Virus record (IMG/VR): IMGVR_UViG_2698536428_000001
Coordinates: 1-21,453 of that record
DNA from: a virus
Taxonomy: Duplodnaviria > Heunggongvirae > Uroviricota > Caudoviricetes
Strand: one strand, 5' to 3'
Length of the DNA: 21,453 bases
Shown here: one piece after another, positions 3,716 to 8,392 of the stretch
Layout of the letters: every line of letters begins with the position of its first letter
How positions within the stretch are numbered: position 1 is the first letter of the stretch
The notes under the pieces: generated by a model
What the model saw: the letters and a program-made list of their open reading frames with translations, nothing else
Databases searched by the model: none
What the model was told of the DNA's origin: nothing
Made by a program: the position numbers and the translations under genes

Positions 3716-4129
3716 ATGGCAACGAATGAAAGCATCATGGCGCTACCGCTGGCGAGTAAATTTAAAGCCGAAGCGCGGGCAATGGCTGACAGAGGGTTAT
3801 CAACCTACGAGGCCGTATATCAACTCAACAAACTGGAAGAACAGGACAAGCCGCGCGCTGATGCGATTATGGCGCTTCATGAACATAACGACTATCAGCC
3901 GCTGTTACGTGCAATGGCAAACGTGCCATGTATTAGCGTCGATAATGCTCGTGAAATCCTGAACATGACCATAGAGCAGGAGCGCCCAAAGGTTGCACCA
4001 GAGCTTACCGCAGCCTTTGAAAACTTTATGGACATGCACAGCCCGCAAGCCGTATCAGCTGGCATGGCATACGATGGCAGAAACCAGGGCGATGACGGCG
4101 ACATCGATCACATACTGAAAACCATCTGA
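3716..4129 (+). CDS. Hypothetical protein (137 aa), last gene of the capsid-paralog operon
   Basis: ATG preceded by a GGGGGA RBS and followed by a strong terminator. No recognisable similarity to lambda FI/FII or other families by eye. Confidence 0.5.
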   Translation: MATNESIMALPLASKFKAEARAMADRGLSTYEAVYQLNKLEEQDKPRADAIMALHEHNDYQPLLRAMANVPCISVDNAREILNMTIEQERPKVAPELTAAFENFMDMHSPQAVSAGMAYDGRNQGDDGDIDHILKTI

Positions 4130-4160: not shown

Positions 4161-4228
4161 CGGGTCCTTTCCGGCATATGGACCCGTTACGGGGCGGCGA
4201 CCTCGCGGATTTTCGCTATTTATGAGAT
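4161..4228 (+). other. Lambda-type cos segment copy 1 (cosQ-side flank, cosN, proximal cosB), rightward orientation
   Basis: Contains the lambda 12-nt cohesive-end sequence GGGCGGCGACCT (4192-4203) within GTTACGGGGCGGCGACCTCGCGGATTTTCGCTATTTATGA, nearly identical to the lambda cosN region as I recall it (…GGGCGGCGACCTCGCGGGTTTTCGCTATTTATGAAAATTTTCCGG…). Confidence 0.7.
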
Positions 4229-4241
4229 TTTTTGAGGGGGT

Positions 4242-4387: not shown

Positions 4388-4563
4388 ATCGCGTATTTGA
4401 TGGCGTAACAGAAAGTGATTTTTAACTTTACCGCTCTGTAACTACGGATTATTCCATGCTGGCACGGAGAACGGCTACGGCATGACGCCACCCAGCCTAT
4501 ACAGAACAGTAAAGCCGATAAATTGTTAATCACGCGCAGCAATGCGTGTGATTTTTGCACACT

Positions 4564-4677
4564 TCCGGTTAACGGGTACGATGTCCGGTTTTAGTGTCTG
4601 TTTTTTGCGCATGTCCGGTTCATAGAAAGCATGTTTTTATATTTTTCATATGGTTAACTTGCAGAGAAACCGGACAT
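4564..4677. repeat. ATGTCCGGTT repeats (two direct, one inverted, one partial); candidate cosB R-like sites for cos copy 2
   Basis: ATGTCCGGTT at 4581-4590 and 4611-4620, inverted AACCGGACAT at 4668-4677, partial TCCGGTT at 4564-4570. They sit on the cosB side of the minus-oriented cosN, with AT-rich DNA between the inverted and direct copies. Confidence 0.4.
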
Positions 4678-4691
4678 GGATCCCGGAAAAT

Positions 4692-4759
4692 TTTCATAAA
4701 TAGTGAAAAACCGCGAGGTCGCCGCCCCGTAACGGGCCATAATTCCAGGAAGGACCCGA
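4692..4759 (-). other. Lambda-type cos segment copy 2, leftward orientation
   Basis: The reverse complement reads GGCCCGTTACGGGGCGGCGACCTCGCGGTTTTTCACTATTTATGAAAATTTTCCGG, matching the lambda left-end sequence through about 50 nt. Plus-strand cosN complement AGGTCGCCGCCC is at 4716-4727. Forms a ~68-bp imperfect inverted repeat with 4161-4228. Confidence 0.7.
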
Positions 4760-4791
4760 CGACACCAGACTATCAGAGCGATGGGGGCACA

Positions 4792-5073
4792 ATGACAGAA
4801 GCCGAAATACTGGGATTAATCCGCCGTGCTGGTGGAATCAGCCAGCAGGTTGACGAACAGGCCACGCAGCCGGACAGCGTGACAGCCGAAAATTATGCGC
4901 GTGTTGTTGCTGAGGTGATGCGCCGTGATGGTATCCAGCTTAATGGCGTGGATATGCGCAACATACGAACCAGAGTTCTTGAGTTGCTGGCCTACCGTCG
5001 CCGCGTGGAGATGTATCGGGAGAAGGAGAAAATAACGTACCACTGGAAGAAGCCGGAGCGGTTGCGGCGGTAA
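4792..5073 (+). CDS. Hypothetical protein (93 aa) adjacent to cos
   Basis: ATG at 4792 preceded by a GGGGG RBS; basic, Arg-rich C-terminus. The longer ORF from 4594 starts in AT-rich non-coding-looking DNA and is less likely. Confidence 0.45.
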   Translation: MTEAEILGLIRRAGGISQQVDEQATQPDSVTAENYARVVAEVMRRDGIQLNGVDMRNIRTRVLELLAYRRRVEMYREKEKITYHWKKPERLRR

Positions 5074-5425
5074 CTGGTTGATATTCCCGACGGCCCAAAA
5101 ATGGGTTGGCTACACCACTCACAACTACGACATTTTCGCAGTTTAATTAATGGTCAGCTTAATCGCTAACCCGCTGATATTTTCGGAAACCTCAATTTGA
5201 GGAAGTCGGCGCGGTAACTTGCTGATATTCCCGATAACGCAAAATTGCGCTGGCTGGCAGAGTGCAAATTTGCACGATGGCCTAACCCATTGATTCTTTC
5301 GAAAACCCCCATTGGGGGAGAACGGGGGAATAAACCTGACTCATTGATTCTTCCACAATCCTCAATTTGAGGAAGTCGGCGCGGTAACTCGCTGAACTTT
5401 AAGCAAAGCGCAAAATTGCGCTTGC
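5062..5425. repeat. Three imperfect direct repeats (core CGGCGCGGTAACTNGCTGA…) with embedded palindromes
   Basis: Copies at about 5064-5100, 5188-5250 and 5358-5425. The last two share about 60 bp, including CCTCAATTTGAGGAAGTCGGCGCGGTAACT and GCAAAATTGCGC. Confidence 0.6.
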
Positions 5426-5956
5426 TGAATAATCATTATGATTACGCAGATGATTAAGGAATGACCGAAGGCGGAAATTCGCCTGTGGTTAATGGGGGAG
5501 TTGCAGATCTGCAACTCGACCATGAAACTACGGAAACTACCCGTAGTTTGGGTAGTAAGAGTAACACCCAGATTTTGGGGCTTACTCGTGATACCCAAAT
5601 TTGGGGTATCGGTGGCAACCATAACGACTTTCGTTACGGTTGATGCTTTTACCCCATTGGGGGAAAGGTATTACGATAATCATAACACCTACCGAACAGG
5701 TAAAGCCCACCAGCCTGATTAACGTTTAACCGGAAAAAAATTCCGGTAGGTGGGGATCCCTATATCGACATTAACGCCCACTAAAACTGTGCATATATGC
5801 ATAGAAAAAGCATCCACCAGCTTTATGACGGATGCCGCTCATCTTATAAATAATCGTGTATTGCAGTGTGTATTGCGACTCCTTTAAACGATAGGTCTGA
5901 GCATTCGTAATGTACTGTTTTTAAATTTTATTTTTTCCTGTCTTTTCATAAAAGCC

Positions 5957-6730
5957 ATGTATGCCGCCACCATTGAAAGTGAGCTGGATACGCAGTCAGC
6001 GATGGATTTTATTCTGGGCGCGAACAGTCAGGAGCAGCGGGAAAGGCTGACGGGCTGGATTGGTGAAATTGCCGCGTATTACGCCGCAGCACCGGTCCGT
6101 CTGGGAGGCGCAAAAGTGCCGCACCTGATGCCGGGGGACTCACTGAACCTGCAGACGGCTCAGGACACGGATAACGGCTACTCCGTGTTTGAGCAGTCAC
6201 TGTTGCGGTATATCGCTGCCGGGCTGGGTGTCTCGTATGAGCAGCTTTCCCGGAATTACGCCCAGATGAGCTACTCCACGGCACGGGCCAGTGCGAACGA
6301 GTCGTGGGCGTACTTTATGGGGCGGCGAAAATTCGTCGCATCCCGTCAGGCGAGCCAGATGTTTCTGTGCTGGCTGGAAGAGGCCATCGCTCGCCGCGTG
6401 GTGACGTTACCTTCAAAAGCGCGCTTCAGTTTTCAGGAAGCCCGAAGTGCCTGGGGGAACTGCGACTGGATAGGCTCCGGTCGTATGGCCATCGATGGTC
6501 TGAAAGAAGTACAGGAAGCGGTGATGCTGATAGAAGCCGGACTGAGTACCTACGAGAAAGAGTGCGCAAAACGCGGTGACGACTATCAGGAAGTTTTTGC
6601 CCAGCAGGTCCGTGAAACGATGGAGCGCCGTGCAGCCGGTCTTAAACCGCCCGCCTGGGCGGCTGCGGCATTTGAATCCGGGCTGCGACAATCAACAGAG
6701 GAGGAGAAGAGTGACAGCAGAGCTGCGTAA
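5957..6730 (+). pseudogene. B: Portal protein gene B, 3' fragment (about C-terminal 257 of 533 codons)
   Basis: Translation matches the C-terminal half of lambda gpB as I recall it, and the 3' end overlaps the C start by 20 nt as in lambda. Sequence immediately upstream (5760-5955) is AT-rich and unlike lambda B coding DNA, so the lambda homology appears to begin near 5955. Confidence 0.7.
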
Positions 6731-8029
6731 TCTCCCGCATATTGCCAGTATGGCCTTTAATGAGCCGCTGATGCTTGAACCCGCCTATGCGCGGGTTTTC
6801 TTTTGTGCGCTTGCAGGCCAGCTTGGGATCAGCCGCCTGACGGATGCGGTATCCGGCGACAGCCTGACTGCCGGAGAGGCACCCGCGGCGCTGGCGTTAT
6901 CCGTTGATGATGACGGACCACGACAGGCCCGCAGTTATCAGGTCATGAACGGCATCGCCGTGCTGCCGGTGTCCGGCACGCTGGTCAGTCGGACGCGGGC
7001 GCTGCAGCCGTATTCGGGGATGACCGGTTACAACGGCATTATCGCCCGTCTGCAACAGGCTGCCAGCGACCCGATGGTGGACGGCATTCTGCTCGATATG
7101 GATACGCCAGGCGGGATGGTGGCAGGGGCATTTGACTGCGCTGACATCATCGCCCGTGTGCGTGACATAAAGCCGGTATGGGCGCTGGCAAGCAACTGAA
7201 CTGCAGTGCAGGTCAGTTGCTTGCCAGCGCCGCCTCCCGACGTCTGGTCACGCAGACCGCCCGGACAGGCTCCATCGGCGTCATGATGGCTCACAGTAAT
7301 TACGGTGCTGCGCTGGAGAAACAGGGCGTGGAAATCACGCTGATTTACAGCGGCAGCCATAAGGTGGATGGCAACCCCTACAGCCATCTACCGGATGATG
7401 TCCGGGAAACACTGCAGTCCCGGATGGATGCAACCCGCCGGATGTTTGCACAGAAGGTGTCGGCATATACCGGCCTGTCCGTGCAGGCTGTGCTGGATAC
7501 CGAGGCTGCAGTGTACAGCGGTCAGGAGGCCATTGATGCCGGACTGGCTGATGAACTTGTTAACAGTACCGATGCGATCACCGTCATGCGTGATGCACTG
7601 GATGCACGTAAATCCCGTCTCTCAGGAGGGCGAATGACCAAAGAGACTCAATCAACAACTGTTTCAGCCACTGCTTCGCAGGCTGACGTTACTGGCGTGG
7701 TGCAAGCGACGGAGGGCGAGAACGCCAGCGCTGCGCAGCCGGACGTGAACGCGCAGATCACCGCAGCGGTTGCGGCAGAAAACAGTCGCATTATGGGGAT
7801 CCTCAACTGTGAGGAGGCTCACGGACGCGAAGAACAGGCACGCGTGCTGGCCGAAACCCCCGGTATGACCGTGGAAACGGCCCGCCGCATTCTGGCAGTT
7901 GCACCACAGAGTGCACAGGCGCGCAGTGACACTGCGCTGGATCGTCTGATGCAGGGGGCACCGGCACCGCTGGCTGCAGGTAACCCGGCATCTGATGCCG
8001 TTAACGATTTGCTGAACACACCAGTGTAA
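6711..8029 (+). pseudogene. C: Head protease/scaffold gene C, disrupted by a frameshift near 7180-7199
   Basis: GTG start at 6711 gives MTAELRNLPHIASMAFNEPLML… (lambda gpC). The reading frame ends at TGA 7197-7199 (…KPVWALASN*) and gpC sequence continues in another frame from 7178 (…QLNCSAGQLLASAASRRL…). The span is 1319 nt, not a multiple of 3; lambda C is one ORF of 1320 nt as I recall. Confidence 0.7.
7424..8029 (+). CDS. nu3: Scaffolding protein Nu3 (in-frame internal start within the 3' part of C)
   Basis: ATG at 7424 (MDATRRMFAQKVSAYTGLS…), 201 aa, ending at the C stop as in lambda. Lies downstream of the C frameshift, so it is intact. Confidence 0.75.
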   Translation: MDATRRMFAQKVSAYTGLSVQAVLDTEAAVYSGQEAIDAGLADELVNSTDAITVMRDALDARKSRLSGGRMTKETQSTTVSATASQADVTGVVQATEGENASAAQPDVNAQITAAVAAENSRIMGILNCEEAHGREEQARVLAETPGMTVETARRILAVAPQSAQARSDTALDRLMQGAPAPLAAGNPASDAVNDLLNTPV

Positions 8030-8038
8030 GGGATGTTT

Positions 8039-8371
8039 ATGACGAGCAAAGAAACCTTTACCCATTACCAGCCGCTGGGCAACAGTGACCCGGCTCATAC
8101 CGCAACCGCGCCCGGCGGATTGAGTGCGAAAGCGCCTGCAATGACCCCGCTGATGCTGGACACCTCCAGCCGTAAGCTGGTTGCGTGGGATGGCACCACC
8201 GACGGTGCTGCCGTTGGCATTCTTGCGGTTGCTGCTGACCAGACCAGCACCACGCTGACGTTCTACAAGTCCGGCACGTTCCGTTATGAGGATGTGCTCT
8301 GGCCGGAGGCTGCCAGCGACGAGACGAAAAAACGGACCGCGTTTGCCGGAACGGCAATCAGCATCGTTTAA
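8039..8371 (+). CDS. D: Head decoration protein gpD
   Basis: 110 aa, [27 protein letters not shown]…[11 protein letters not shown]; matches lambda gpD as recalled. Confidence 0.9.
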
Positions 8372-8392
8372 CTTTACCCTTCATCACTAAAG

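Follow-up and report, generated by a model that had tools for sequence, protein, structure and literature searches.

The window analysed here is the whole 21,453-nt stretch of DNA at positions 1 to 21,453 of IMG/VR virus record IMGVR_UViG_2698536428_000001, and our subject is a non-coding segment within it, at 5062-5786. The left 5.95 kb come from a phage satellite, a phage-inducible chromosomal island (PICI), and make up its right part, and a remnant of the lambda portal gene B begins at ~5957. The segment is a conserved right-end module of this PICI family of Escherichia coli. It starts at the end of orf93, which encodes a protein of 93 residues, and consists of three parts: six co-oriented modules of ~48 bp (5066-5423), a run of longer hairpins, and a conserved terminal block. 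Each module combines a match to the consensus of integration host factor (IHF), the DNA-bending protein of the host, with a short dyad. The features are as follows.

5066-5105 (+): module 1; IHF consensus TATCAACCAGTTA at 5071-5083 (minus strand), dyad CCCAaaaaTGGG at 5094-5105
5164-5202 (+): module 2; IHF consensus TATCAGCGGGTTA at 5167-5179 (minus strand), dyad CCTCAAtTTGAGG at 5190-5202, of a type known from alleles of the phage gene roi
5210-5249 (+): module 3; IHF consensus TATCAGCAAGTTA at 5215-5227 (minus strand), dyad CGCAAaaTTGCG at 5238-5249
5262-5275: free-standing perfect palindrome GTGCAAATTTGCAC, between modules 3 and 4
5278-5318 (+): module 4; IHF consensus AATCAATGGGTTA at 5283-5295 (minus strand), dyad CCCCCAtTGGGGG at 5306-5318
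5336-5373 (+): module 5; degenerate IHF site with one mismatch, dyad TCCTCAAtTTGAGGA at 5359-5373
5380-5423 (+): module 6; CTGAA variant of the leader, dyad AAGCGCAAaaTTGCGCTT at 5406-5423
5430-5700: run of near-contiguous longer hairpins and imperfect palindromes, at 5430-5444, 5469-5484, 5498-5517, 5525-5549, 5560-5588, 5590-5610, 5616-5642, 5652-5662 and 5671-5693
5614-5786: terminal block, the most widely conserved part, 74-99% identical across PICIs with different integrases
5707-5714 (minus strand): Chi GCTGGTGG, in the terminal block
5729-5747: last dyad, ACCGGAAaaaaaTTCCGGT, in the terminal block
5787-5956 (+): integrase-specific attP/attR arm, outside the conserved array
5809-5836: terminator-like hairpin with a second Chi, in the attP/attR arm
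~5947-5957: junction with the lambda portal gene

The stretch is the 725-nt window with the highest palindrome density in the 21 kb. It contains 19 perfect-stem hairpins of at least 5 bp, 14 of at least 6 bp and 10 of at least 7 bp, against means of 5.7, 1.6 and 0.42 in dinucleotide shuffles, none of which (0/500) reaches the observed values. Every palindrome named in a preliminary description of this DNA is present. Among the palindromes of the stretch are CCTCAATTTGAGG (5190 and 5360), CGCAAAATTGCG (5238 and 5409), CCCCCATTGGGGG (5306), GTTGCAGATCTGCAAC (5500-5515), CCCAAATTTGGG (5594) and CCCCATTGGGG (5652), together with the hairpin AAACTACGG..CCGTAGTTT (5525-5549); the free-standing GTGCAAATTTGCAC had been assigned to 5263-5276, one base to the right of where it lies. 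The direct repeats of ~45-60 bp reported there are likewise real; there is one family of 60 nt with copies at 5166, 5282 and 5336 and one of 45 nt with copies at 5067 and 5211; CGGCGCGGTAACT occurs at 5207 and 5377, and GCGGCGGTAACT at 5064. Two points needed revision. The core CAAATTTG, thought to be shared by several palindromes, holds as an A/T-rich centre for a subset and is not a general feature; what the modules have in common is a conserved leader and, at a constant distance from it, a dyad whose sequence varies. As for the extent, given as 5062-5760, the conserved non-coding module reaches ~5786, and the gap as a whole, up to the portal remnant of lambda, extends to ~5956. In other PICIs, different hairpins fill the same places as the 5430-5700 run.

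The claim that the stretch has no convincing open reading frame (ORF) is borne out. The ORF list for 5062-5786 holds only short, overlapping frames, none of them credible; the three minus-strand frames gave no Pfam or PHROGs match, the plus-strand frames being checked by eye only; and RefSeq annotates nothing in homologous stretches. A decayed minus-strand gene was rejected on the same minus-strand result.

The leader of the modules has the form (G/C)TAAC-N3-YTGAT(A/T)TT.., and a short perfect palindrome comes after it. In module 1 the leader and the stop codon of orf93 overlap, the TAA of the gene being the TTR of the first IHF consensus. When a leader profile was run on the 21-kb window, and on 45 kb from strain A5 with its closely related element, matches were found in the array only and always on the plus strand. 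In IMG/VR, nearly all pattern matches lie directly after an orf93 homologue, with one to seven modules per element and a distance of 200-750 nt from orf93 to the terminal block. Across 144 distinct modules, the most conserved leader positions include all those specified by the IHF consensus YAANNNNTTGATW, which is WATCARNNNNTTR on the other strand. The T-A-A of the leader is 94-97% conserved, the T of TGAT 81%, and the specified positions overall 81-100%, the W being conserved too; TGA stands at 100% by construction, having been fixed as the alignment anchor. Three positions of the N4 spacer are variable (49-70%) and the fourth is 90% C. The stricter form WATCAANNNNTTR is matched exactly by 70 of the 144 modules and with one mismatch by 40 more. 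In the 21-kb window, WATCARNNNNTTR has five matches, four of which, all on the minus strand, fall in modules 1-4 within 225 nt of the array. The leaders thus match the consensus and are conserved at the positions that it specifies, and the putative IHF cores of the modules are YAANNNNYTGATW.

Covarying dyads and the phage rha/roi element

A hairpin follows 255 of 269 leader matches, and 49 different hairpin sequences occupy this place. A perfect stem of at least 5 bp is found in 73% of 146 distinct modules, compared with 9% in shuffles, and its position is fixed: in 116 of 128 modules the dyad is centred 20.5-21.5 nt past the T of TGA. In an alignment of 55 distinct modules, changes on both sides occur at all seven pairs, with 62 double-change cells against 21 ± 2.9 in shuffles (0/500 reach 62) and a covariation score of 0.435 against 0.125, slid-partner controls remaining at or below 0.143. 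Covariance across homologous loci, proposed as a check in the preliminary description, therefore reveals dyads that covary by Watson-Crick changes, the palindromes being kept by compensatory change at more than 140 loci. Their loss from homologous loci, which that description took as refuting it, is not what is seen. The seven-pair dyad counts 7 G·U cells against ~309 Watson-Crick cells. Internal mismatches number 12 G·T and 10 A·C. Since G·T equals A·C, neither strand is favoured as RNA; the excess of G·U over A·C on the transcribed strand that a structured RNA would show is not seen.

Outside satellites, sequences similar to the array were found in phages, all of them within genes and antisense. 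The modules share 84-95% identity with an intragenic dyad-plus-IHF element of rha and roi genes. Module 5 is identical at 45 of 49 positions to the antisense of roi of Stx and lambdoid phages, roi being a gene that joins a Rha-like helix-turn-helix (HTH) to KilAC/ANT. A second module type matches the KilA-N gene of Salmonella phage UPF_BP1, and a third is found within an Arc-like gene. HK022 and 80 roi loci encode residues 43-58 by the dyad and then a perfect IHF consensus. The dyad centre lies 18 nt before ATCA (18.0 in 16 of 19 distinct sequences; in two of the other three the scan took another palindrome, and one is without the consensus). The element is defined by a dyad centre 17.5-18.5 nt upstream of the A of ATCA on the strand of WATCAR, and the PICI modules, with their 20.5-21.5 nt from the T of TGA, have this same geometry, the spacer being 11 nt in type-A modules as against 12.

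The roi alleles fall into four classes that differ in their dyads and in the peptides these encode (PQIE, PALQ, PPMV). The dyads TCCTCAAaTTGAGGA and CCTCAAaTTGAGG encode PQIE, CCTGCAtTGCAGG and CTGCAtTGCAG encode PALQ, and CCCCCAaTGGtGG encodes PPMV; the dyad of JLK-2012-type roi is TCCTCAAATTGAGGA and that of HK022 is CTGCATTGCAG. That dyad symmetry is kept while the Roi protein sequence changes argues for selection on the nucleic acid. Every class has a PICI module identical to it at 37-42 of 44 positions, class-specific spacer included. The HTH region of Roi just upstream of the dyad changes along with the dyad class.

In canonical Rha genes the dyad is CGCAAttTTGCG and encodes RNFA, a conserved Rha motif. 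The dyad of module 3, CGCAAaaTTGCG, which is the commonest type-A dyad, is the antisense of these R-N-F-A codons. Among 29 distinct Rha genes, chosen only for the 12-mer and an IHF-like site, 27 have flanking codons that extend the dyad, and both exceptions are G·T. A connection of this gene family with IHF is documented: in hosts that lack IHF, phage growth is blocked by Rha proteins, and rha itself is regulated by IHF (PMC4936722). The same Rha-IHF statement stands in the Pfam text quoted by PMC6591296, and the title of Clerget & Boccard (1996), on HK022 Roi, links Roi with IHF.

The phage element, as in phi80 and P22 rha and in HK022 roi, is thus the same composite as a satellite module, with its dyad centre ~18 nt from ATCA and dyads of a shared family of types. 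It is present in one copy, coding and in frame (I-N-x-L for the IHF consensus; RNFA, PQIE or PALQ for the dyad). The satellite, in contrast, has one to seven tandem, non-coding copies that are inverted relative to the neighbouring genes and whose frames are lost, the minus-strand frames containing stops; it also has extra dyad types and no cognate protein gene. On this comparison the array appears to work like the rha/roi element, or to derive from it, rather than being a strict member of that class.

Two observations on roi itself belong here. The alleles differ in one mosaic block of ~150 nt (codons ~17-64), which contains the HTH recognition helix, dyad and IHF consensus of roi and lies between near-invariant N- and C-terminal flanks, and this block looks like a self-contained specificity cassette, a recognition helix with its own operator. 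The HK022 roi locus is at 7656-8378.

No homologue of Roi, Rha or an Arc-like protein was found in 42 PICI loci, for each of which 13 kb upstream of the array were covered. Any regulator that binds the dyads would consequently have to be supplied from elsewhere, in trans. CAGCC.. and TTCGCC.., both frequent types of dyad, occur in PICI arrays only; a search of IMG/VR for phage-gene counterparts returned only PICI arrays and chance matches. PICI dyads are, moreover, often more perfect than those of phage genes, as in CCCCCAtTGGGGG compared with CCCCCAaTGGtGG. It follows that the satellites keep dyad symmetry for its own sake.

Readings of the array

We favour, tentatively and with a nearly even chance of being right, the reading that the stretch is a DNA-level array that binds IHF and Rha/Roi-type regulators of the helper phage. 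The core would be a tandem, co-oriented series of ~48-bp "rha-box" modules acting in cis as DNA, each consisting of a site for the host bending protein IHF and a short perfect palindrome of variable sequence, with its centre held about two helical turns from the IHF core. The phage counterpart is the single copy just past the DNA-binding helix in Rha/Roi, Arc-like and KilA-N genes, whose alleles differ in the palindrome. IHF would bend each module, and the palindromes would be operators for Rha/Roi-type regulators given in trans by the helper. For operators speak the change of the HTH region of Roi with the dyad class and the site that Roi is reported to bind within its own gene, beside an IHF site and stabilised there by IHF. 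The result would be a multi-allelic collection of helper-regulator sites beside the attachment site. Its part would be that of a decoy or a landing pad, perhaps also of a roadblock made of protein where the late operon ends, and through it the satellite would be coupled to the lytic programme of its helper. Such an array would derive from the intragenic control element of rha/roi and keep pace with it. The sequences show the anatomy of the array, its pattern of conservation, the covariation, the homology with the rha/roi element and the lack of Rha/Roi genes in the satellites. Binding of IHF and of regulators, and the physiological role, are what we infer from them: host IHF and regulators of the helper probably have a bank of sites in the satellite. 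The IHF-like leader, the Watson-Crick dyads, their fixed distance and the rha/roi homology favour one option of the preliminary description, an array of sites for dimeric proteins. The binders put forward with it, orf93, the PerC-like protein and orf68, give way to host IHF and helper Rha/Roi as the likely ones.

Several points weigh against this reading. IHF binding by the modules is deduced from the consensus, which within rha genes corresponds to the codons I-N-x-L, so that coding constraint could yield it. No IHF sites occur in the long run of hairpins at 5430-5700, which none of the readings explains. The uniform orientation of the modules is predicted by an RNA model and merely tolerated by a model of DNA sites. 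As the HTH and dyad of roi share one mosaic block of ~150 nt, linkage could explain why they covary, and a test for association of dyad type with PICI proteins was confounded by clonal groups. In strain A5, whose embedded PICI is closely related, neither roi nor rha is annotated in the helper prophage.

The uniform orientation is the starting point of the main rival reading, in which the array is transcribed together with orf93 and its plus-strand modules silence the rha/roi, Arc-like and KilA-N mRNAs of the helper, the hairpin acting as a kissing loop and the several modules covering several helper alleles, by analogy with the action of P4 CI and P1 C4 RNAs on kil and ant. All 269 modules are indeed co-oriented with the plus strand antisense to the phage genes, they are 84-95% identical to the four roi allele classes, the array follows a same-orientation ORF with no clear terminator between, and both exceptions to dyad extension in rha are G·T, which would be wobble pairs in mRNA. 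PICIs and helper-embedded PICIs (HE-PICIs) also use CI/C4-type RNAs in the Bro zone, and if the array were antisense it would share with these RNAs (P4 CI, P1 C4 or isrK) the property of a satellite element aimed at ant/kil-type genes of the Bro network, those of the helper or its own. The array differs from them in matching no Rfam C4 or isrK family, in lying at the right end and not in the Bro zone, and in being tandem and multi-allelic. It has no promoter of its own. The IHF-specified positions are kept while three of the four N4 spacer positions and the spacer between IHF site and dyad diverge from the phage genes; nothing but the 12-mer and ATCA..TTA is common to type-A modules and canonical rha; the CAGCC.. 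and TTCGCC.. dyads have no phage-gene counterpart in IMG/VR; and PICI dyads are more perfect than the supposed targets, with no G·U excess. We therefore regard silencing by antisense RNA as unlikely.

A structured RNA was among the options of the preliminary description, and the stretch may still be one, though the expected signs of it are missing: Rfam 15 gave no match at the gathering threshold in the whole window (in 4500-6000, only a chance-level E = 4.6), and G·U is not in excess over A·C. The stretch might be a structured 3' untranslated region like REP/BIME elements, an exonuclease barrier in the late-operon or orf93 mRNA, or else a weak terminator or insulator before attP and int. Its place at the 3' end of co-oriented genes and its many consecutive hairpins, with different ones substituting at the same place across PICIs, are in keeping with this. 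So is the precedent of BIME-1/RIP elements, which combine short palindromes with an IHF site downstream of genes and vary in copy number. The hairpins have no U tracts, however, the module stems are short (4-8 bp) and their pairs Watson-Crick only with G·T equal to A·C, and neither the exact IHF consensus nor the fixed dyad spacing nor the rha/roi homology is accounted for; we consider this distinctly unlikely. A known family of extragenic repeats, which the preliminary description had named as an outcome that would undo its proposal, is not what was found. BIME-1/RIP elements are built on one conserved REP of 35 nt in inverted pairs dispersed over the chromosome, whereas the array has palindromes of 12-18 bp that vary in sequence and are repeated in direct tandem. 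These palindromes are not known to be similar to the REP consensus, and module matches, unlike a dispersed ~35-nt REP consensus, lie almost only beside orf93 of PICIs, leaving aside single copies inside phage regulator genes.

We see a slim chance that the array is neutral debris, scars of exchange with helper rha/roi and among PICIs, amplified by unequal crossing-over. Close relatives differ in how many modules they have (1-7) and in what order, module 1 overlaps the end of orf93, ~10 nt from the 3' end of that gene recur in internal type-A modules, and reading frames are lost, all of which debris would show. Neutral decay would erase both features, though, and it would not be expected that the IHF-specified positions persist through 146 distinct variants, with compensatory changes preserving perfect dyads, or that only the 48-nt piece of rha/roi is present, always whole and at the same place in the satellite. 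An extended attP arm or accessory recombination region bound by integrase, AlpA and IHF is very improbable: the stretch adjoins the attachment site in every element and IHF sites are typical of attP arms, but the array is common to PICIs with different integrases, similarity ends at ~5786, the modules lie 520-880 bp from the crossover, and the motif of HE-PICI arms is found separately at 5855-5877. The barest chance goes to single-stranded DNA hairpins for priming or packaging, which the preliminary description had also raised, or to a second origin like P4 crr. The element does encode a primase and SSB, and the hairpins are symmetric on both strands. Against this, the iteron origin at 620-870 has repeats (GGTAGAGG, GGTAGAAGG) unrelated to the modules, the cos copies lie at 4161-4232 and 4687-4758, and the position of the array relative to cos differs between lambda-type and HK97-type PICIs. 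Among further candidates, a nut-like boxA/boxB was dropped because the leader is the IHF consensus and the dyads pair by Watson-Crick only; integron attC, CRISPR, type III toxin-antitoxin repeats and retron RNA were rejected, there being no partner gene and the geometry being wrong.

F sopC (12 x 43 bp) and P1 parS (an IHF site flanked by ParB boxes) have units of ~45 bp with an inverted repeat. They resemble the array of our favoured reading in the tandem ~45-bp units, the short inverted repeat and the IHF-assisted architecture. In sopC, however, the dyads are identical and bound by one protein encoded next to them, whereas in the array the dyads differ and the IHF part is constant, and the satellite has no partition ATPase or ParB-like gene. 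More specifically, the array may be a tandem, expandable library of copies of the helper rha/roi control element, each tuned to one helper allele, used either as a multi-specific decoy or sensor for helper regulators or as an antisense array against their mRNAs; this we think possible, if doubtful. In the literature searched on PICIs, capsid-forming PICIs and HE-PICIs we found no description of the array. It resembles known kinds of element, IHF-linked palindromic repeats and arrays of binding sites; a satellite with tandem, multi-allelic copies of an internal control element of a helper gene would be a new form of these.

PICIs and capsid-forming PICIs are widespread, and only part of the way in which they sense and exploit many different helpers is understood. 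If the library reading is true, in either form, the array would give a satellite a sequence-based way to recognise and manipulate many helpers. An unrecognised cassette in Rha-family genes, made of a recognition helix plus its own operator plus an IHF site, would then come to light as well. A conserved non-coding array that copies the IHF-linked element of helper Rha/Roi genes in several allelic forms would mean that satellite and helper meet at an interface of a new type. The old question of what Rha and Roi do, and why IHF is needed, gains a handle, with the dyad and IHF site just past the recognition helix as the likely cis target. The array is short, modular and easily deleted or transplanted, which makes these hypotheses directly testable.

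The satellite around the array

Upstream of the array, the satellite part of the window carries the following.

20-619: C-terminus of primase
620-870: iteron origin, directly after the primase gene
between the origin and 3716, in this order: SSB gene, PerC-like gene, lambda-E-like capsid and gpD-like genes
3716-4129: small protein in the position of Rpp; PHROG 1999, in strain A5 an HTH regulator by annotation
4161-4232 and 4687-4758: two inverted 72-nt copies of cos
4792-5073 (+): orf93, PHROG 1561, function unknown, always directly upstream of the array

The structure model of orf93 has three helices at a pLDDT (predicted local distance difference test) of 64, and this low-confidence model gave no fold match in BFVD. 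Scanning the genome collection with orf93 led to one locus only. The stretch itself was found in 1514 of 5426 complete E. coli genomes (28%), and the window carries ~170 nt more than the most similar genomes.

In strain A5, the related element is ~97% identical over the 82% of the window that it covers. Its order is an N-terminal portal fragment, int, an alpA-like gene, Bro, primase, SSB, the capsid genes, orf93, the stretch and a C-terminal portal fragment. The element is therefore inserted in a late gene of a lambdoid prophage, the portal gene, co-oriented with it and flanked by both of its fragments (site B:Phage_portal_2:241). It is the HE-PICI described by Tommasini, Mageeney and Williams, and the satellite in the window is likewise an HE-PICI. 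The arm of HE-PICIs has a doubled motif tgTGTATTGCantgTGTATTGCa 81 ± 2 bp upstream of the attP centre (PMC10111431). Here, cgTGTATTGCagtgTGTATTGCg at 5855-5877 lies ~81 bp before the junction at ~5947. The module of orf93 plus stretch also closes a PICI of the capsid-forming kind, integrated at tqsA. PICIs that use different attachment sites are similar up to ~5786, where integrase-specific sequence begins, and a module common to such PICIs is a shared right-end module, not an integrase-specific arm.

About 30 of 80 IMG/VR viral-contig records stop exactly 3 nt past the stop codon of orf93. Callers of prophage boundaries thus routinely trim the non-coding right end of satellites, which may explain how the array went unnoticed. 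In a PICI near dinD/yicG (NZ_AP042695.1, 4362132-4363098), array modules flank a gene annotated as a Q-family antiterminator; among its other products are a protein of the ProQ/FinO family and three that are PerC-like. The strong hairpin at 5809-5836 lies on the minus strand and has an 11-bp stem and then TTTTCT, pointing into the satellite from the attR side.

The two inverted cos copies (72 nt, 85% complementary, with lambda-like cosQ/cosN) bracket an A/T-rich segment of 454 bp. This segment has CCGGACAT-type repeats (4560-4690), and related PICIs hold a TerS gene there. EcCICFT073 has two cos sites, and in the literature read we found no description of an inverted cos pair. The last dyad of the array, ACCGGAAaaaaaTTCCGGT, has AACCGGA in common with the CCGGACAT and AACCGGAAG repeats (4560-4690) of the putative cosB of the minus-strand cos copy, which may be chance or may mark a further site for terminase or Rpp. 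The origin at 620-870 is a typical PICI origin, with at least ten GGTAGAGG/GGTAGAAGG iterons in both orientations around an A/T-rich core.

Chi (GCTGGTGG) occurs seven times, at 1190, 1524, 2166, 3173, 4828, 5707 and 5814, three times on the plus and four times on the minus strand. All seven copies are confined to the satellite part of 5.95 kb, the 15.5 kb of lambda-like genes having none; the expectation for the window as a whole is ~0.9, and 0/100 shuffles reach seven. The first correctly oriented Chi stands ~1 kb from each cos copy, a placing that suggests protection of the gam-less satellite from RecBCD.

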